DNA of 64,000 nucleotides, from the NCBI GenBank assembly GCA_041492755.1, contig JBGPXN010000004.1, forward strand, positions 1,373-65,372, written 5' to 3'. How positions within the stretch are numbered: position 1 is the first letter of the stretch; the number at the start of each line of letters is the position of its first letter. Shown piece by piece: positions 11,457 through 64,000 of the stretch. This DNA is from Candidatus Methylomirabilia bacterium. Lineage in GTDB: Bacteria; Methylomirabilota; Methylomirabilia; Rokubacteriales; CSP1-6. A model generated the notes under the pieces. That model made no database searches and had not been told where the DNA came from. It worked only from the letters and a program-made list of their open reading frames with translations. Made by a program: the position numbers and the translations under genes.

Positions 11457-11702
11457 ATGCCGCCGTCGGTGACCGTCTACAGCAACGTCGGGTGAGGGCC
11501 CTGCCATCGCGCGATGGAGTATCTATCGCGAAAAGGTGTCGCTTTCACCGAGAAGAACGTCGGTAAGGACCCGCAGGCCCGGCAGGAGCTGATGGAGCTC
11601 GGGACGCTGTCGTTGCCCGTGATCCTCATCGGTGACGCGCGCTTGACCGGCTTCAACCCCGGTCAGATCGACGCGGCGCTCACGGCGGCCGGCATCGGAT
11701 GA
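11457..11702 (+). CDS. glutaredoxin-like protein with probable selenocysteine (U-G-P-C redox motif, TGA at 11493..11495)
   Basis: GAGGAGG (11445-11451), 5 nt, ATG 11457, then MPPSVTVYSNVG-TGA-GPCHRA, which runs in frame into track ORF 11514..11702 (MEYLSRKGVAFTEKNV...). The track ORF alone lacks strand beta-1 and the CxxC motif. Confidence 0.7.
11504..11517 (+). promoter_or_regulatory. candidate SECIS-like hairpin 3' of TGA 11493
   Basis: CCATC-GCGC-GATGG (5-bp stem, 4-nt loop) starting 8 nt after the TGA. It is short, so support is weak. Confidence 0.35.
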
Positions 11703-12118
11703 GTGACGCGCCGGCCGGCCCCTCGCAGGCGAACATCGACAAGATGTGGGCGTACGCGCGCAAGTACGCCGAGAAGTCCGGCACCCAGCTGCATCCCGAT
11801 CGCAACGTGACCCAGACGGTGGCCGAGGGGCTCGCGCGCCACATCGAGCTGGTGGGCAAGCCGCTGTGCCCCTGCGTCTTCTATCCCGATCCCAAAGAAG
11901 AGGCGAAGCAGCGGCGATGGGTCTGCGCGTGCGACGAGATGCAGAATTACAAGTATTGCCACTGCCTGCTGTTCGTGAACAAGGACGGTGTTCCCATCAC
12001 GGAATACCTGCCCGAAGGCCACGAAGGCCGCGAAGCGTACGGCATCGTCAAGGATCCCAACCCTGAGCGGGGTCGAGGGATGGCAAAGGTGCGCGAGCGG
12101 CAGCAGGCGTCCGGCTAG
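11699..12118 (+). CDS. ferredoxin:thioredoxin reductase catalytic-subunit-like protein
   Basis: Exact Cys spacing CPC-X16-CAC-X8-CHC (CPCVFYPDPKEEAKQRRWVCACDEMQNYKYCHC). Its ATG overlaps the glutaredoxin-like stop (ATGA). Confidence 0.85.
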   Translation: MSDAPAGPSQANIDKMWAYARKYAEKSGTQLHPDRNVTQTVAEGLARHIELVGKPLCPCVFYPDPKEEAKQRRWVCACDEMQNYKYCHCLLFVNKDGVPITEYLPEGHEGREAYGIVKDPNPERGRGMAKVRERQQASG

Positions 12119-49109: not shown

Positions 49110-49394
49110 ATGGCGACCTACCAGATCGTGCAGTGGCGCGGCATCCCGCTCATCGTCGAAGCGAGCGATGGTTCCGGCGCCGCGACGCGTCCGCTGTCCG
49201 AGCGGTTCCAGATGCTCGTGGATTCCGCGGCGATGCAGCTGGGCCTCGAGGGGTCGGAGGAGTATCTCGCCCAGTGGGGGAAGAGCGCGCCGGCGGCGCG
49301 TGCGGGAACCGCGCAAGAAGTCGTCGACACGATCGCGCTCGAGCTCGAGGAGCGTTTCTCCGAGTTCATCGGTCAGACCTTCCGCCGTCCGTGA
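49110..49394 (+). CDS. small conserved protein of the so-called 'virulence factor' domain type
   Basis: MATYQIVQWRGIPLIVEA...LSERFQMLVDSAAMQLG...EYLAQW matches my memory of that ~90-aa family (Y.I..WR.IP.QV). Confidence 0.55.
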   Translation: MATYQIVQWRGIPLIVEASDGSGAATRPLSERFQMLVDSAAMQLGLEGSEEYLAQWGKSAPAARAGTAQEVVDTIALELEERFSEFIGQTFRRP

Positions 49395-49457
49395 GGGGCG
49401 CCCTACGCGATGAGCCGCTTTGGCGAGGTCACCCGCCGGGAGGCGACCTCGGCGGCC

Positions 49458-49604
49458 TCAGAACTCCCCGCCGTGCCCCATCGATGGGGCCGCGTTCTCG
49501 GCCTCCGGGACGTCCGTGATGAGGACTTCGGTCGTGAGCAGCAAGGACGCGATCGACGCCGCACTCGGCAAGGCGACCGGTACGGCGACCTTGGTCGGAT
49601 CGAA
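49458..49604 (-). pseudogene. relic of a GroEL C-terminus
   Basis: The minus strand reads [48 protein letters not shown]-stop. Compare the GroEL tail DPTKVTRSALQNAASIA.L.LTTE...........M.G.GG. Confidence 0.55.
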
Positions 49605-49818
49605 TCTTCTCCTTCATCTCGGTCTCGGTGGCCGCCCCGGCCGAGGGATCGTCTCGTCCGCCGGTCGGTGGTCACCCGCCTTGAGCGCTGTTCGTGCGGT
49701 TCCCGCCCCGTGTGCGCCCGTTGCCCGCGCGGACGATTGTTGGCACGTTCGTGACACGGCGCTACGCGAACGGGCAGACTATCAGCGGCGCGACGTCGGG
49801 TCGGCCGGGAGGCCGCGG

Positions 49819-50364
49819 ATGACGAGATCACGGGAACGATACGGTATTCTCGGGGCAATGCTCGGCATGGTCGTCGGGGCAATGGTGGTGTTCGCGTCGT
49901 TGGCCGGGGGGCAAGCGTTGCGCCTCGGGACACCCGCGCCGGAGATCGCCGGGGCGCCGTGGGTGAATTCGCCACCGCTCACCACGGCTGTCCTCCGCGG
50001 ACGCGTGCTGTTCGTCGAGTTCTGGACGTACGGCTGAATCAACTGCAAGAACGTGATCCCGCAGTTGCGGGACTGGCACGAGCGGTATGCGGGGGAAGGG
50101 CTCACCATCGTCGGTGTGCATTCGCCCGAGTTCGCGGGGGAGAAGCGCTGGGACAGCGTGGTGGAGGCGACGCGCCAGCTGGGCATCCGATACGCGGTCG
50201 TGCAGGACAACGACTTTGCGATCTGGAAGCGGTTCGGCGTGCGCGCGTGGCCGACGGGGGTGCTCGTCGATCGCAAAGGGATCCTCCGGTATCGCCACAT
50301 CGGCGAAGGGGAGTACGAGGAGACGGAGGCGATGATTCGCCGGCTCCTCGGCGAGCGCGGGTAG
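49819..50364 (+). CDS. membrane-anchored TlpA/DipZ-like thioredoxin-fold redoxin with probable selenocysteine (U-I-N-C, TGA at 50035..50037)
   Basis: GGGAGG, 6 nt, then ATG 49819. A TM segment ILGAMLGMVVGAMVVFASL, then VLFVEFWTYG-TGA-INCKNVIPQL, continuing in frame into track ORF 50053..50364 (GLTIVGVHSPEF...WPTGVLVDRKG). Confidence 0.75.
50057..50072 (+). promoter_or_regulatory. candidate SECIS-like hairpin 3' of TGA 50035
   Basis: TCCCGC-AGTT-GCGGGA (6-bp stem, loop containing GU) starting 19 nt after the TGA. Confidence 0.4.
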
Positions 50365-50378
50365 TCGGGCGCGTCGGC

Positions 50379-51194
50379 ATGCGCGTGTTCTGGCGTCGGA
50401 TCGTCTTGAACGAGCCACCGTCCCCACCGGAAGCGGTCAGCGAAGACGTGGCGGAGGAGCTGCAGCGCCGGCTCCTCCGGCTCGTCGCCGTTCACTCGAC
50501 CGGAGATCGCCCTGTGGATTACGCCGCGCTCCGGACGTCGGCGGACTTCCGCGGGGTCGAGGCCTGCGCCCGGCGCCTGGTCCACCTCGATCCCCGGACG
50601 CTTGGCTCCCGTGAGAGGCGGCTGGCATTCTGGATCAACCTCTACAACGCGCTCGTGCTGCACGGAATCGTCGCCCTCGGCGTGCGCCGCTCGGTGTGGG
50701 AGGTGTGGAACTTCTTCGGGCGCGTGAGCTACCACGTCGGCCCGTTCGTCCTCACCGTGGACGAGATCGAGCACGGGATCCTGCGCGGCAACCGCCGGCG
50801 CCGCCTGCCGCCGCGCGTCCCGTTCCGCTCGGGCGATCCGCGTCGCGCCCTCGTGCTCGACCCCGTCGAGCCGCGCATCCACTTTGCCGTCAACTGCGGC
50901 TCGCGCTCGTGCCCGCCCGTCGCCGTCTACCGCGCCGACGTGCTCGAGGCCCAGCTTGATCTCGCCACCCGGGGGTTTCTCAATGAGGAGGTCAAGCTCG
51001 ATGCGCGCGGCCGCGTCGAGTGCTCGCGCCTGCTGAAGTGGTACGGCGGCGACTTCGACGCGGCCGGCGGCCTCGCGTCGTTCCTGCTGCGTCATCTGGA
51101 CGACGGACCGGCGCGCGCGGCGCTGGCGGCCGGGGCCGCCCCGTGCCAGGTATTCAGGCCGTACTCCTGGTCCGTGGGCCACCGCGTTGCGTGA
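50379..51194 (+). CDS. DUF547-domain protein
   Basis: RLAFWINLYNALVLHG, VDEIEHGILRGN, IHFAVNCGSRSCPP, LKWYGGDF. Confidence 0.8.
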   Translation: MRVFWRRIVLNEPPSPPEAVSEDVAEELQRRLLRLVAVHSTGDRPVDYAALRTSADFRGVEACARRLVHLDPRTLGSRERRLAFWINLYNALVLHGIVALGVRRSVWEVWNFFGRVSYHVGPFVLTVDEIEHGILRGNRRRRLPPRVPFRSGDPRRALVLDPVEPRIHFAVNCGSRSCPPVAVYRADVLEAQLDLATRGFLNEEVKLDARGRVECSRLLKWYGGDFDAAGGLASFLLRHLDDGPARAALAAGAAPCQVFRPYSWSVGHRVA

Positions 51195-53425: not shown

Positions 53426-54382
53426 ATGCTGATCCGTAAAGCGCCGCGCTTCAAGTCGTCCGAGATCACCGACGAGCGCGTCTACCTGGACCGCCGCACG
53501 TTCATGGCCGGTACGGCCGCGCTCGTGCTGGGTGGCGGTGAGGCCCTCGCCGCCACCCCGCCCGCGCCGCTGGCGCCGCTCAAGGCCGCGCGCAGCGAGG
53601 CGTTCAGCGTCAAGGAGCCGGCCACCAAGGAAGAGAGCGCGACGACCTACAACAATTTCTACGAGTTCGGCGTCAACAAGGAGGATCCCTCCCGTCTCGC
53701 GCACACGCTGCGGACGCGGCCGTGGACGGTGAAGGTGGAGGGATTGGTCGGCAAGCCGAAGACGTTCGACATCGACGAGCTGATCCGGCTGTTCCCGCTC
53801 GAAGAGCGGGTCTACGCGCTCCGCTGTGTCGAAGCGTGGTCGATGATCATCCCGTGGATCGGCTTCCCGCTCGCCTCGCTGCTCAAGCGGGTGGAGCCTA
53901 CCAGCCAGGCGAAGTTCGTCGAATTCACCACGTTGCAAGATCCAGAACAGTTCCCCGGGCAGAAACCCGGGCTGTTCGGGATGTCGTCCCTCGACTGGCC
54001 CTACATCGAAGGCTTGCGCCTGGACGAGGCCCTCCACCCACTCACGCTCCTTACGGTCGGCATGTACGGCAGGATGTTGCCCAACCAGAACGGGGCGCCG
54101 GTGCGGGTCGTCATTCCGTGGAAGTACGGGTTCAAGAGCGCGAAGTCGATCGTGCGGATCCGGGTGGTGGCCGATCAGCCCAAGACCGCGTGGGAGAAGG
54201 CGTCGCCGCAGGAATACGGGTTCTACTCCAACGTCAACCCGAACGTGAGCCATCCGCGCTGGAGCCAGGCCACCGAGCGTCGGATCGGCGAGTTCCGCCG
54301 CCGCAACACGCCTATGTTCAACGGCTACGCCGACCAGGTCGCGTCGCTCTACACGGGGTTGGACCTCAAGAAGTTCTATTGA
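53426..54382 (+). CDS. msrP: protein-methionine-sulfoxide reductase, molybdopterin catalytic subunit
   Basis: Tat signal [14 protein letters not shown]. Motifs [35 protein letters not shown]. Confidence 0.9.
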
Positions 54383-54470: not shown

Positions 54471-55124
54471 GTGTCGCGGGTGACGCGTCGGGGACGCATC
54501 GTCCTCAAGACGGCGGTGTGGGTGGGCGCCCTCGCGCCGCTCGGCTGGCTCCTCTATCGCACGGCCACCGATCGGCTCGGCGCGAATCCGATCGACGAGA
54601 TCACCGACCGCCTCGGCGACTGGACGCTGCGGCTCCTGCTCGTCTCACTGACCATGACCCCACTGCGCCTGCTGTTCGACCTGTCCTGGCCGGTGACGCT
54701 GCGCCGGCTCCTCGGGCTCTTCGCGTTCTTCTACGCCTCACTGCACCTCTCGGTCTGGATGGTGCTCGACCACTTCTTCGACTGGCCGACCATGGGCGCC
54801 GACGTCGTCAAGCGCCCGTACATCACCGTGGGCATGACCGCGCTGCTGCTGTTGATCCCGCTCGCGGTCACCTCGACCACCGGCATGATCCGCCGCCTCG
54901 GCGCGCGCGCCTGGCGGCGGCTGCACCGCCTGGTGTACCTCGCCGCCATCGCGGCCGTGCTGCACTACCTCTGGCTGGCCAAGGTCGGCGTGCTCGATCC
55001 CTACTGGTACGCGGCGGCGTTGGTCGTGCTCCTCGGCGTCCGCGGGTGGGACGTCGCGCGCCGCGCCGTACGCCGGCGGCGGGGCCGGTCAGTGCCGGGC
55101 GTTTCCTCGCCGGCCACGCCGTGA
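54471..55124 (+). CDS. msrQ: protein-methionine-sulfoxide reductase heme-binding membrane subunit
   Basis: ANPIDEITDRLGDWTLRLLL, the FAFFYASLHLSVW His ligand, and LHRLVYLAAIAAVLHY. The GTG 54471 start was chosen to exclude the repeat. Confidence 0.85.
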   Translation: MSRVTRRGRIVLKTAVWVGALAPLGWLLYRTATDRLGANPIDEITDRLGDWTLRLLLVSLTMTPLRLLFDLSWPVTLRRLLGLFAFFYASLHLSVWMVLDHFFDWPTMGADVVKRPYITVGMTALLLLIPLAVTSTTGMIRRLGARAWRRLHRLVYLAAIAAVLHYLWLAKVGVLDPYWYAAALVVLLGVRGWDVARRAVRRRRGRSVPGVSSPATP

Positions 55125-55204
55125 GCCCGGAAAAAAGTCATCTGGGGCCCGGAGCGGGGCCGTAGTATTTCGGGAGCTCGACGCTTTGATGACGGGGTGA
55201 ATCG

Positions 55205-56536
55205 ATGACACGTCGCGTGTGGATGCTCGCGCTGCTCTTCCTGGCCGGTTGCGCCACCGGCAGTCACGGAGGGGGCTCCAGTGCGTCGGGTCCCTCCACG
55301 CCGGTGCGCACGGTGCTCCCGAACGGCGTGGTCCTCATCGCCCACGAGCACCGTGCCAGTGACGTGGTCGCGCTACAACTGTGGGTCCGCGTGGGCGGCC
55401 GCGATGAAGCGCCCGACGAGCTCGGCCTGTCGCACTATCTCGAGCACATGCTGTTCAAGGGCACGCCCACGCGGCCGCCGGGCTCGATCGACTCGCTGAT
55501 CGAAGGCCTCGGCGGACAGAGCAACGCGTTCACCTCGCACGACTTCACGCACTACGACGTGGTGGTGCCCGCCGCCCACCTGAAGGCGGGCGTCGAGCTG
55601 CTCGCGGACATCGCGGTCAACGCCAATTTCGATCAGGGTGAGCTCGACGCCGAGCGCAAGGTCGTGTTCGAGGAGATGAAGCTCACCGAGGATCGCTCCG
55701 ATCAGTTCCTCGTCCGGCGTCTCTACGAGATCGCGTATGCGCCCCATCCCTACGGCCGGCCCATCCTCGGGACGCGCGAGCTGATCGGCGCGCTGACGCG
55801 CGAGCGCCTCGCCCAGTACTACAAGCGGCTCTACACGCCGCGCCACCTGGTGCTCGTCGCCGTCGGCGCGGTCACTCCCGCCCAGGTGCGCGCGGTCGCG
55901 GAGGCGACGTTCGGGCGGCTCACCGATGGTCCGGCCTCGCGCGCACCCGCGCCGGCGCCCACGCCGCTCGACGGGGGCCGCAAGGTCGACGTGCCGCGTC
56001 CCGAGCAGCAGGCCCACCTCGGATTGGCGTGGCAGGTGGCGTCGACCTCCAATCCGGACGTCTACGCCGTGGACCTGCTCAACTACGTGCTCGGCGACGG
56101 GGCGAGCTCACGGCTGAACCAGACCGTGCGTGAGCGCGAGCGCCTGGTGTTCTCGGTCGAGTCCGCCTACGGTGCCTGGGACAAGGCCGGCCTCCTCACG
56201 GTGACGGCGCGTCTGGAGCCCGCCAACATCGAGCGCACGGAGCGCGCCATCCTCGACGTGATCCGGAAGGTGCAGGCCGAGGGCATCACCGAAGCCGAGC
56301 GCCAGCGGGCCATCATCACCGCGGAATCGAACTACGCGTTCGACATCGAGACGGCCGAGGGACTGGCCAAGACCTACGGGACGGCGGAGGTCACATGGAC
56401 GCTCGACGACGAGCTGCAGTACCTGTCGCGGCTGCGCCGAGTCACGGCGGCGGAGATGCAGGCCGCCGCACGAAAATACCTCGGCGAGAACAACTACGCG
56501 CGCGTGCGGTTCCTGCCGCGGGGAGCCGCGCGGTGA
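55205..56536 (+). CDS. M16-family zinc peptidase (active subunit)
   Basis: Lipobox-like LLFLAGC. The HxxEH motif is present in LSHYLEHMLFKGT. Confidence 0.9.
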   Translation: MTRRVWMLALLFLAGCATGSHGGGSSASGPSTPVRTVLPNGVVLIAHEHRASDVVALQLWVRVGGRDEAPDELGLSHYLEHMLFKGTPTRPPGSIDSLIEGLGGQSNAFTSHDFTHYDVVVPAAHLKAGVELLADIAVNANFDQGELDAERKVVFEEMKLTEDRSDQFLVRRLYEIAYAPHPYGRPILGTRELIGALTRERLAQYYKRLYTPRHLVLVAVGAVTPAQVRAVAEATFGRLTDGPASRAPAPAPTPLDGGRKVDVPRPEQQAHLGLAWQVASTSNPDVYAVDLLNYVLGDGASSRLNQTVRERERLVFSVESAYGAWDKAGLLTVTARLEPANIERTERAILDVIRKVQAEGITEAERQRAIITAESNYAFDIETAEGLAKTYGTAEVTWTLDDELQYLSRLRRVTAAEMQAAARKYLGENNYARVRFLPRGAAR

Positions 56537-63700: not shown

Positions 63701-64000
63701 CCGCCTTGACGTTGAGCGTGTCCTGCTGCGTCTCGAGCAACAGCACGTCCACCCCAGCATCGATCAGCGCGCGGCTCTGGATCTGGTAGCCCTCGCGGAC
63801 CTCGTCGAACGTGATGTTGCGGGTGACCGAGATCGACCGGGTCCCCGGTCCGAGCGCGCCGGCGACGAACCGGTCACCCGCGGTGTCACGCGCCAGGCGC
63901 GCGGCCGCGTGCGTGATCTCGTAGGCGCGGTCGGCGAGACCGTACTCGCCCAGCACCCACGGCGCGCATCCGAAGGTGTTCGTGGAGACGAGGTCGGCGC
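60786..64000 (-). CDS. metH: cobalamin-dependent methionine synthase (the N-terminus runs off the window)
   Basis: Hcy, pterin, B12 (GDVHDIGKN) and AdoMet-activation domains are all present. The frame stays open beyond 63956 to the window end (..ADLVSTNTFG..). Confidence 0.95.
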   Translation of the reverse strand, partial: ADLVSTNTFGCAPWVLGEYGLADRAYEITHAAARLARDTAGDRFVAGALGPGTRSISVTRNITFDEVREGYQIQSRALIDAGVDVLLLETQQDTLNVKAAALGIREAMREAGVDVPLMVSATIEPMGTMLAGQGVEPLYVALEHLNLFSIGLNCGTGPEFMTDHLRTLAGMATCFVTVYPNAGLPDERGQYGETPASVAFKMRRFVDEGWVNLVGGCCGTTPAHIRALATMVRGRGPRTPAPRALQAVSGLEVLYPTEDNRAIFVGERTNVIGSRRFKELIVAEDFESAAEIGRAQVRGGAQVLDVCLANPDRDETTDMERFMANLTRKVKVPLMIDSTDARVLELALRHCQGKAIVNSINLEDGEERFERVCPLLRAYGAAVIVGCIDEDKQQGMAVTRTRKLAIAERSYALLTERYGIPARDLIFDSLVFPVGTGDRNYLGSAVETIEGVAAIKARFPETKTILGISNVSFGLPPAGREVLNAVFLYHCTKAGLDYAIVNTERLERYASIPEGERRLAEDLLFGRGADPVAAFAAHFRGRQKAAPVAQTLSLDERLARYIIEGSREGLIEDLDSKLKEAAPLDIVNGPLMRGMDEVGRLFNDNQLIVAEVLQSAEAMKAAVAHLEPFMEKAEAATRGTFVLATVKGDVHDIGKNLVEIILGNNGYRVINLGIKVPPETLIAACQEHKPDAIGLSGLLVKSAQQMVVTAQDFRAAGIEIPLFVGGAALTKKFTATRIAPEHAGLTVYAKDAMDGLNLANQLFSAPTRDALISRVRAEQAALATGDAATARPAAPLDQRPPARVSLTRVEPPAPPDLEPHLLREVPLAHIYPYLNLQMLYGKHLGVRGLVSRLLEDGDPKVLEIHEVVEALKREAAEHGWLRARGIYQWFRVRATGETLIVADARGTEQARFTFPRQRDGERLCLTDYVRDDADDAVAMFTVTCGEGVRERAETLKQRGEYLESHALQALAIECAEAFAEMLHARLRTLWGFPDAPDVKIADKLKGRYRGIRVSFGYPACPSLADQTTLFALLRPEQIGLALTEGFMMDPEASVSALVFHHPGAKYFKAE

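Follow-up and report, generated by a model that had tools for sequence, protein, structure and literature searches.

An in-frame UGA very probably read as selenocysteine in an exported TlpA/DipZ-like redoxin gene of Candidatus Methylomirabilia

Results

Two annotated fragments lie in one reading frame

The locus is situated on the forward strand of the analysed DNA stretch of 64,000 nucleotides, referred to below as the window. The following features were assigned, with Sec and SECIS functions being predictions:

49807..49812, + strand: Shine-Dalgarno-like GGGAGG, read from the sequence, 6 nt 5' of the start codon
49819..50364, + strand: putative full selenoprotein coding sequence, 181 codons including Sec73, followed by the stop codon TAG (50362-50364)
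49843..49917, + strand: predicted N-terminal export signal with the hydrophobic core GILGAMLGMVVGAMVVFASLAG (residues 9-30), followed by G-Q-A (residues 31-33)
50035..50037, + strand: UGA codon 73, read as Sec, the presumptive attacking residue of U-I-N-C; aligns with Cys
50044..50046, + strand: TGC codon 76, the predicted resolving Cys of UxxC; invariant in alignment A1 and equivalent to the second Cys of the DipZ motif CINC
50057..50072, + strand: bacterial SECIS-like hairpin inside the coding sequence, stem 50057-50062/50067-50072, apical loop AGUU at 50063-50066
50248..50256, + strand: W144-P145-T146, all three residues invariant in alignment A1 and aligned with WPA of DipZ; we interpret them as the conserved cis-proline loop opposite the active site of the thioredoxin fold, with the cis conformation being assumed

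As described in the first-pass annotation, the open reading frames 49420..50037 and 50053..50364 share one frame and are separated by the TGA at 50035-50037 and the five sense codons ATC AAC TGC AAG AAC. Translation of 49819..50364 revealed this TGA as the only internal in-frame TGA, with TAG at the end, and the computed read-through product carries RGRVLFVEFWTYG directly before and INCKNVIPQLRDWHERYAGEGLTIVGVHSPEF directly after the TGA position, as had been proposed. A ribosome binding site and start codon belonging to this gene itself had also been claimed, and GGGAGG is indeed present upstream of ATG 49819. The same ATG was chosen by public gene callers for a 72-aa fragment (L001 9767..9985, corresponding to window 49819..50037). 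Public records split the gene into this ORF and a 103-aa ORF, which are named 'hypothetical protein' and 'AhpC', respectively. Promoter and terminator scans over 49300..50500 returned no candidates.

The UGA codon is conserved in a coding context

Sequence comparison was performed with 80 species-level genome loci, the best of roughly 550 genome matches and mostly derived from Rokubacteria/Methylomirabilota. Codon 73 is TGA in 72 of these closest genomes and TGC in the remaining 8, and the Cys forms are scattered among the Sec forms. In all 72 TGA loci, homology extends in the same frame to either side of codon 73. The TGA is kept among orthologues that are only about 56-96% identical, and independent assemblies at ~80% identity carry it at the same codon. 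A metagenome scan yielded at least 120 further TGA forms, and among the metagenome pattern matches listed 120 of 120 showed homology on both sides of the TGA. Since it occupies the same column between conserved protein flanks in 72/80 genomes and in all of the metagenome matches listed, the TGA is not a chance event. Upstream of the TGA, third-position variability amounted to 0.32 compared to 0.10-0.13 at the other positions, and variation downstream was likewise mainly found at third positions, which is the coding-type pattern. The assignment of Sec to the position of the nucleophilic Cys held, as homologues with FWTYGCINC, up to 79% identical, have an invariant first Cys in the column of U73. 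TGA is also the commonest ordinary stop codon in the window, terminating 37 of the 58 called genes; the genetic code is therefore not reassigned, which led us to reject Trp or Gly as the meaning of UGA.

A SECIS-like hairpin is maintained in the Sec forms

The hairpin downstream of the TGA was recovered as reported earlier, with the 6-bp stem and AGUU loop of UCCCGC-AGUU-GCGGGA starting 19 nt past the TGA. Folding resulted in a dG of -10.2 kcal/mol for the hairpin alone and -12.7 kcal/mol in a 30-nt context. Bacterial SECIS elements are described as having a loop of 3-9 nt, a stem of 4-16 bp, a G in the first two loop positions, a distance of 16-37 nt from the UGA and an MFE <= -7.5 kcal/mol (PMC13188914). 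The first-pass annotation had proposed a check against a SECIS model, and the hairpin fell within every one of these published limits, with a UGA-to-loop distance of 25 nt and the loop G at position 2, followed by U. A first folding test of 66 nt was only weakly better than shuffled sequences (z = -1.5), so that the case for the hairpin is comparative rather than thermodynamic.

In the Sec forms, the codons building the hairpin are almost completely fixed (CCG 72/72, CAG 71/72, TTG 70/72, CGG 72/72), whereas the Cys forms displayed CCG in 4/8, CAG in 4/8, TTG in 5/8 and CGG in 6/8 (Fisher p 4e-5 to 9e-3, with the 8 Cys forms as a small contrast group). The hairpin is still present in 4 of the 8 Cys-form DNA sequences. 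TTG is a rare codon in the window genes, accounting for 12 of 264 Leu codons. Third-position variability dropped to 0.065 at the hairpin as compared to 0.28-0.32 in the flanks. In the hairpin register 79% of the cells were paired versus 37-60% in slid registers, and the observed covariation score was reached by none of 500 shuffles. Diverged relatives contain alternative stems with compensatory changes, by which the hairpin is retained. This comparison of sequences supports a constraint at the RNA level, with synonymous sites held constant solely in the TGA forms.

A G-U-rich alternative pairing (CGUGAU/GUUGCG), suggested by a longest-stem finder in many sequences, was rejected as the CCCGC/GCGGG stem is energetically preferred. 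Rfam returned no family at gathering thresholds for the whole window and none at E<=10 for 49950..50200, which is uninformative, given that no general model exists for bacterial SECIS elements.

The N-terminus resembles an export signal

Residues ~9-30 are hydrophobic with a maximum Kyte-Doolittle mean of 2.47 (15-residue window). A hydrophobic N-terminal segment is found in 85% of the short-form Sec homologues versus 11% of the long forms, and homologues exhibit A-x-A-like motifs ahead of LR[LVT]G. G-Q-A is a possible signal-peptidase site, and no lipobox was detected in the window protein. Judged by these motifs, a cleavable signal peptide (A/G-x-A before LRLG) and a signal anchor would fit equally well. 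The term "membrane-anchored" used in the first-pass annotation thus describes one of two equally suitable readings.

The protein adopts a predicted DipZ-like thioredoxin fold

With U written as C, the window protein scored above the cut-offs of the Pfam families Thioredoxin_8, AhpC-TSA and Redoxin. An AF2 model was calculated for the Cys homologue P0001 (79% identical), which stands in for the window protein. In the model (pLDDT 91.4), a strand at 61-67 is followed by the motif and a helix at 72-91, and the first Cys sits where helix 1 begins; residues 6-21 of P0001 form an N-terminal helix predicted with low confidence. A fold search with this model recovered DipZ, SOQ1, NHLRC2, ResA, DsbE and Etrx2. 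The designation as a TlpA/DipZ-like redoxin was borne out, DipZ being the best solved relative by sequence as well as by fold. The alignments place the window protein, as a predicted member, in one subfamily with the Trx-like domains of DipZ from mycobacteria, SOQ1 from plants and NHLRC2 from humans. The motif W-[TA]-Y-x-C-I-N-C is common to this group. Bacterial long-form relatives, which combine a Trx-like domain with NHL repeats, carry FWTY[CG]-U-INC and a hairpin at the same position.

The scores remained far below the NCBIfam cut-offs for ResA (50.7 bits vs 170), DsbE (35.8 vs 123), TlpA (23 vs 230) and StoA (32 vs 210), and no cytochrome c maturation or Sco genes were found adjacent to the locus. 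The window protein is therefore not an orthologue of ResA, DsbE, TlpA or Etrx. As no NCBIfam model (ResA, TlpA, DsbE) reached its cut-off, a physiological client is not transferable from a characterised orthologue.

Neighbouring genes and a second selenoprotein candidate

MsrP is encoded within 3.5 kb in 46 of the 80 related loci and is also present in the window. Recurrent neighbours are MsrP-MsrQ and, in relatives, also a histidine kinase and a response regulator. This neighbourhood suggests a role in the repair of oxidative cell-envelope damage, and the MsrPQ linkage may be synteny inherited within one phylum.

Pfam neighbour lists covering ~2.3-60 kb of the 64-kb window contained neither selA, selB or selD nor a nearby CcdA/DsbD, and ARAGORN found no tRNA and hence no tRNA-Sec in the window. 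Likewise, tRNA-Sec (ARAGORN) and SelA, SelB and SelD (tblastn with the E. coli sequences) were not found in 1.3 Mb of related loci; these loci are short flanks of the redoxin gene, so that this result says nothing about the genomes. Methylomirabilota have been reported to be rich in selenoproteins (PMC13188914, PMC13582414).

The redoxin gene had been postulated to be the second probable selenoprotein of the window, and the Grx-like gene 11457..11702 indeed contains U-G-P-C and a hairpin of its own. Two further in-frame TGAs from a GC3-based scan, 49074 and 59947 (minus strand), were rejected; one marks a junction of adjacent genes and one is antisense. Because it missed both real candidates, this crude scan is not a reliable screen.

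Discussion

Interpretation of the UGA codon

The conserved UGA, the coding-type flanks and the SECIS-like hairpin point to one gene. We consider it very probable that 49819..50364 encodes an exported thioredoxin-fold thiol:disulfide reductase of ~150-180 residues from the TlpA-like superfamily with Sec73 as catalytic residue (W-T-Y-G-U73-I-N-C76). During translation, SelB with GTP and Sec-tRNA(Sec) would bind to the hairpin and Sec would be placed at the UGA. Guided by its N-terminal signal sequence, the protein would then cross or enter the cytoplasmic membrane, on whose outer side the U73 selenolate might attack a disulfide or sulfenate of a client protein. The mixed selenenyl-sulfide would be resolved by C76, and the Se-S bond might finally be reduced again by a membrane electron carrier of the CcdA/DsbD type, whose gene would lie elsewhere in the genome.

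In bacterial selenoproteins, SelB and release factor 2 compete at the UGA. Compatible with Sec insertion, the codon might thus act mainly as a selenium-dependent switch in which inefficient Sec insertion gives the full-length redoxin only with selenium and otherwise a signal-anchored peptide of 72 residues. The competition as such is general for bacterial selenoproteins, and the truncated product would retain the export signal. We regard such a switch as improbable, since no data point to a function of the truncated peptide and the conservation of the region preceding the UGA reflects its place in the Trx fold (beta strand VLFVEFW) rather than a separate unit.

A little less probable still is the insertion of Cys. 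SelC*/tRNA(ReC)-type tRNAs have been described (PMC13582414), and a UGA decoded via SelB and SECIS with such a tRNA would result in an ordinary CxxC redoxin whose conserved TGA and SECIS hairpin look identical. No tRNA of this type was seen in the window. As the scattered TGC forms show ordinary Cys codons to be within easy reach, a costly recoding to the same amino acid would be difficult to account for. The wealth of selenoproteins reported for Methylomirabilota (PMC13188914) also argues for Sec.

The lowest probability is assigned to a true stop codon, leaving a pseudogene or two small genes of 72 and 103 aa; the gene callers give exactly this split (49819..50037 and 50053..50364) and UGA is the commonest stop codon in the genome, but no thioredoxin fold can work when severed at the active site, 72 of 80 species-level genomes of only 56-96% identity retain the identical interruption, both halves are under coding-type constraint, the downstream piece lacks a separate ribosome binding site and has its GTG within the stretch that runs into the hairpin, and synonymous sites of the hairpin codons are frozen only alongside TGA.

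Significance of the Sec-containing redoxin

Selenoproteins of this kind are already known, and the window gene adds a member. Bacterial UxxC selenoproteins of TlpA, Prx-like and redoxin type have been predicted computationally from 2005 on (PMC1088965, PMC2398784, PMC9312934, PMC13188914); the kind is therefore not new, and current understanding of UxxC thioredoxin-fold selenoproteins is not overturned. None of the NCBIfam selenoprotein models recognises the window protein, and full-text searches on NHLRC2 with selenocysteine and on DipZ with selenoprotein returned no paper describing the WT[YF]GUINC subfamily. Since these genes escape the NCBIfam selenoprotein models, selenoproteome counts for Rokubacteria/Methylomirabilota are underestimates; hundreds of orthologues in MAGs from soil and groundwater are likewise recorded as two fragments.

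With Sec inserted as proposed, the locus would illustrate that Sec can be the predominant state of an exported redoxin in a soil lineage that lives mostly under aerobic or microaerobic conditions, and that a SECIS element can freeze an amino acid motif (I-P-Q-L-R) in a protein. Likewise, Sec-bearing bacterial homologues of SOQ1 and NHLRC2 would be natural evidence that the first Cys of CCINC is a redox nucleophile. A more far-reaching reading is tentative and in our opinion rather unlikely. It holds that WT[YF][GC]-U-INC defines a selenoprotein family of the DipZ-C/SOQ1/NHLRC2 type beyond all catalogues and models, that Sec is ancestral and dominant across the phylum-level Rokubacteria/Methylomirabilota group (~90% of species), and that the family comes in two forms, one exported, stand-alone and tied to envelope repair by MsrPQ, the other a cytoplasmic Trx-NHL protein. 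If this is true, the Sec position would point to the catalytic nucleophile in the SOQ1/NHLRC2 redox domain, which is poorly understood.

Comparison with known systems

Among solved structures, the C-terminal domain of DipZ from M. tuberculosis (2HYX, 5CYY) is most closely related, with an E-value of 2e-36 and ~43% identity for 2HYX and a Foldseek E-value of 1.5e-18. The motifs FW-x-Y-x-C-I-N-C, the WP cis-Pro loop and GEG-Y match between the two proteins, and the DipZ domain is extracytoplasmic, as is predicted for the window protein. In contrast to the window protein, DipZ has Cys instead of Sec and carries two fusion partners, a CcdA-like membrane domain and another domain at the C-terminus. 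The window protein, with 181 residues, stands alone and adds only a signal sequence.

Second-best among the solved relatives are Arabidopsis SOQ1 (7DJJ/7DJK) and human NHLRC2 (6GC1) with the motif FWTYCCINC. These eukaryotic proteins use Cys and bear an NHL beta-propeller, while the window protein lacks NHL repeats and possesses a predicted export signal; among its bacterial relatives, the NHL fusion occurs only in the long forms.

ResA, CcmG (DsbE), TlpA and Etrx belong to the same superfamily of TlpA-like proteins (cd02966), with TM-scores of 0.67-0.76 (query-normalised) in the fold comparison. For these CcdA- or DsbD-fed proteins the predicted cycle is alike, in that the first residue attacks, the second resolves and a membrane carrier re-reduces the protein.

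The previously predicted UxxC TlpA/Prx-like selenoproteins agree with the window protein in fold, Pfam families, Sec as attacking residue, location of the SECIS element in the ORF and widespread Cys homologues. In the catalogue papers Sec forms are a minority among Cys homologues, whereas here they constitute the majority of a lineage from soil and groundwater.

A redoxin gene interrupted by a single TGA

The first-pass annotation had described two ORFs in one frame, split by a TGA, and had proposed a redoxin with its own ribosome binding site and start codon. Sequence and translation bear this out. ORFs 49420..50037 and 50053..50364 lie in one frame, with only the TGA and five sense codons between them. 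Translation of the region from ATG 49819 gave 181 codons with a single internal stop (MTRSRERYGILGAMLGMVVGAMVVFASLAGGQALRLGTPAPEIAGAPWVNSPPLTTAVLRGRVLFVEFWTYG*INCKNVIPQLRDWHERY...). GGGAGG (49807-49812) is located 6 nt before this ATG, which public gene calls also chose as start of the upstream fragment.

49819..50364, + strand: redoxin gene
50035-50037, + strand: TGA, codon of U73
50057-50072, + strand: hairpin UCCCGC-AGUU-GCGGGA, beginning 19 nt past the TGA

The window matched NCBI contig JBGPJB010000001.1 (GCA_041485185.1), where three mapped loci share one offset of 23014 (record position = window position + 23014). With this offset, window base 64000 would fall at 87014, past the contig's length of 86178, and the window may therefore derive from another record or a longer contig version. 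Both this record and the JGI data list a 72-aa 'hypothetical protein' and a 103-aa fragment here, the latter named 'alkyl hydroperoxide reductase subunit AhpC' by JGI. The 424 nt (49395..49818) that separate the redoxin start from the upstream 'Virulence_fact' gene carry no called gene, and this stretch displayed no sigma-70-like promoter, terminator or Rfam match. An opposite-strand TPR gene occupies the same position in two loci of relatives (L003 and L007).

Conservation of the TGA codon

Alignment placed the TGA at the first Cys of FWTYGCINC in full-length homologues of up to 79% identity. Database fragments of 99-103 aa begin directly past this motif. On their contigs, as in the window, a 59-65-aa ORF is followed by TGA, five codons and the fragment, and read-through gives ...VEFWTFG*INCRNVIPQLR.... 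A metagenome scan for TTYTGGACNTWYNNNTGAATHAAYTGY revealed at least 120 loci, and homology extended to both sides of the TGA in 120 of the 120 matches listed. A second scan, with each GTDB species represented by a single genome, yielded 550 relatives; in the best 80 of these the active-site codon was TGA in 72 (Sec forms) and TGC in 8 (Cys forms). The closest named relatives in the latter scan were MAGs of Candidatus Rokubacteria/Rokuibacteriota and Methylomirabilota, and a few related MAGs are labelled Binatia, Chloroflexota, Acidobacteriota or Deltaproteobacteria. Pairwise identity among the Sec forms ranged from 56 to 96% (median 68%), and the Cys forms are dispersed among them except for one pair of 97% identity (L136 and L158). 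TGA is thus the majority state among the best 80 of 550 relatives and probably the ancestral one, with several Sec-to-Cys conversions.

The 72 Sec forms vary mainly at third codon positions, upstream of the TGA (0.32 vs 0.10-0.13 at other positions) as well as downstream of it (0.28 vs 0.15), and therefore both halves are translated in this frame. A reassignment of UGA in the genetic code was ruled out, as TGA serves as normal stop codon in 37 of the window's 58 called genes.

A SECIS-like hairpin downstream of the TGA

Folding confirmed the 6-bp hairpin with AGUU loop noticed in the first pass. The published bacterial SECIS model comprises a loop of 3-9 nt with a G among the first two positions and then G or U, a stem of 4-16 bp, a distance of 16-37 nt from the UGA and an MFE of <= -7.5 kcal/mol (PMC13188914). 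With its 4-nt loop, 6-bp stem, spacing of 25 nt and -10.2 kcal/mol alone (-12.7 kcal/mol within a 30-nt context), the window hairpin agrees with this model.

Comparative support for the hairpin is stronger than thermodynamic support, the fold reaching a z of only -1.5 against shuffles. The hairpin codons are nearly fixed in Sec forms and less frequent in Cys forms.

Hairpin codons in Sec and Cys forms (Fisher p)
Pro CCG: 72/72 Sec, 4/8 Cys, p 4e-5
Gln CAG: 71/72 Sec, 4/8 Cys, p 2e-4
Leu TTG: 70/72 Sec, 5/8 Cys, p 6e-3
Arg CGG: 72/72 Sec, 6/8 Cys, p 9e-3

TTG provides 12 of the 264 Leu codons in window genes. Third-position variability was 0.065 in the hairpin codons vs ~0.3 in the flanks. Moreover, diverged relatives carry a hairpin at the same site, with stems that differ but are mutually compensated and loops containing G (CUCCCGC-AGUU-GCGGGAG, UUUCCGC-AGUU-GCGGAAG, CUGCCG-AGUUA-CGGCAG; further AUUCCCUG-GGU-CAGGGAAU, UGCCUUG-GGU-CAAGGCA, ACCCUUG-GUA-CAAGGGU). 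With the AGUU register held fixed across 111 distinct sequences, 79% of cells were paired, compared with 37-60% when the 3' partners were slid. The covariation score was 0.227 vs 0.139 in shuffles, a value reached by 0 of 500 shuffles. Four of the eight Cys forms (L143, L171, L190 and L204) have kept the hairpin (CCCGC-A[GA][UC]U-GCGGG) and the other four have lost it; those retained look like fossil SECIS elements from recent Sec-to-Cys conversions.

The Cys homologues, the conservation of the TGA and the constraint on the hairpin indicate that the earlier reading, Sec in place of the nucleophilic Cys, was essentially right. We regard it as very likely that UGA is decoded as selenocysteine in this single gene for a predicted exported redoxin.

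A second candidate and the Sec machinery

The redoxin had been proposed as the second selenoprotein of the window, and the other candidate likewise combines a UxxC motif with a hairpin.

11457..11702, + strand: glutaredoxin-like UxxC candidate, TGA 11493-11495 (VYSNVG-U-GPCHRAMEYL)
11510..11530: its hairpin, 9 bp, GUA loop, 23 nt past the UGA, z = -2.8
11699..12118, + strand: ferredoxin-thioredoxin-reductase (FTR) catalytic-subunit gene (FeThRed_B)

With U written as C, this product matched Pfam Glutaredoxin (E 2.4e-14); the best NCBIfam match, the YruB family, was below cut-off. Public calls retain only the 62-aa part past the TGA. The candidate overlaps the start of the FTR gene by 4 nt. The sole NCBIfam match of the latter was 'FtrB family double-selenoprotein' (NF041072; 42 bits vs a cut-off of 160). 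No stop interrupts the window copy, which suggests a Cys-type relative of this known selenoprotein family.

Neither a tRNA nor selA, selB or selD was found within the 64-kb window. The 1.3 Mb of flanks fetched around redoxin loci likewise contained no selA, selB, selD or tRNA-Sec, which is uninformative. According to a review, one Methylomirabilota MAG has 63 predicted selenoprotein genes (PMC13188914), and Sec-type hydrogenases have been reported from Methylomirabilota (PMC13582414); together with the second UxxC candidate, these reports lend indirect support to the Sec reading.

Fold, location and proposed mechanism

The redoxin with U written as C exceeded the cut-offs of three Pfam families, Thioredoxin_8, AhpC-TSA and Redoxin. 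ResA, DsbE, TlpA and StoA barely matched in NCBIfam, all far below cut-offs, and none of its selenoprotein-specific models matched.

Solved relatives ranked by sequence
1: M. tuberculosis DipZ C-terminal domain, 2HYX/5CYY, E 2e-36, FWAYSCINC
2: Arabidopsis SOQ1, 7DJJ, E 5e-25, FWTYCCINC
3: human NHLRC2, 6GC1, E 8.5e-21
Below NHLRC2: YkuV, ResA

The AlphaFold2 model of P0001, a full-length Cys homologue 79% identical to the window protein, had a mean pLDDT of 91.4, with low confidence in the N-terminal helix. In this model a beta strand (VVFVEFW) leads into the motif and helix 1, the predicted order being that of canonical thioredoxin active-site geometry. Foldseek returned DipZ, SOQ1 and NHLRC2, then ResA, DsbE and Etrx2, ranked as by sequence; the DipZ C-terminal domain is the best solved relative by both routes, as expected for the TlpA/DipZ-like redoxin first proposed. 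W144-P145-T146, invariant in the homologue alignment, is taken to be the cis-Pro loop.

The segment of residues 9-30 is strongly hydrophobic, with G-Q-A between it and LRLG. Homologues exhibit A-x-A-like motifs at this position, and 85% of short-form (stand-alone) Sec homologues have a hydrophobic N-terminal segment. These features predict that the redoxin is exported. The signal may be either cleaved or retained as the membrane anchor first proposed.

By analogy with what is established for DipZ, ResA, CcmG and TlpA, the selenolate of U73 would attack a client disulfide or sulfenate, C76 would resolve the mixed bond, and a CcdA/DsbD-type carrier would re-reduce the Se-S bond. No gene for such a carrier was found near the redoxin.

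Gene neighbourhood

MsrP lies within 3.5 kb downstream of the redoxin in 46 of 80 related loci and is followed by MsrQ in 20; an OmpR-type response regulator stands between redoxin and MsrP in 47. In two loci, L149 (3118..5661) and L167 (3136..6451), a histidine kinase precedes the regulator in a block with MsrP and MsrQ, an order that resembles E. coli hprRS-msrPQ. The window has redoxin, DUF547, glycosyltransferase (GT2), TPR, methyltransferase, MsrP, MsrQ and two M16 peptidases, the four genes after the redoxin standing where relatives have two-component genes.

53426..54382: MsrP
54491..55210: MsrQ

The recurrence of this neighbourhood hints at a role of the redoxin in oxidative repair of the envelope; the linkage may also be no more than inherited synteny.

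Comparison with known selenoproteins

Long forms of ~490-650 aa made up 43 of the 120 TGA-form metagenome matches listed (e.g. L017, L042 and L083). They resemble bacterial versions of SOQ1 and NHLRC2 in having NHL repeats after a Trx-like domain, and carry the motif FWTY[C/G]-U-INC and the hairpin at the same position as in the window gene. Most are without a hydrophobic N-terminus and thus probably cytoplasmic.

Predictions of UxxC selenoproteins of thioredoxin, Prx-like, TlpA-like and redoxin type date back to the Sargasso Sea and GOS analyses (PMC1088965, PMC2398784, PMC9312934, PMC13188914), and the window gene therefore belongs to a kind already known. The searchable literature held no mention of the DipZ-C/SOQ1/NHLRC2 subfamily as selenoprotein. 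Specific to this gene are its membership in that subfamily, the dominance of the Sec state across a whole lineage, the putatively cytoplasmic Trx-NHL long form with C/G-U-I-N-C and the systematic mis-annotation as two ORFs. Its value is that of a solid annotation correction and a tidy comparative SECIS case rather than a new kind of system.
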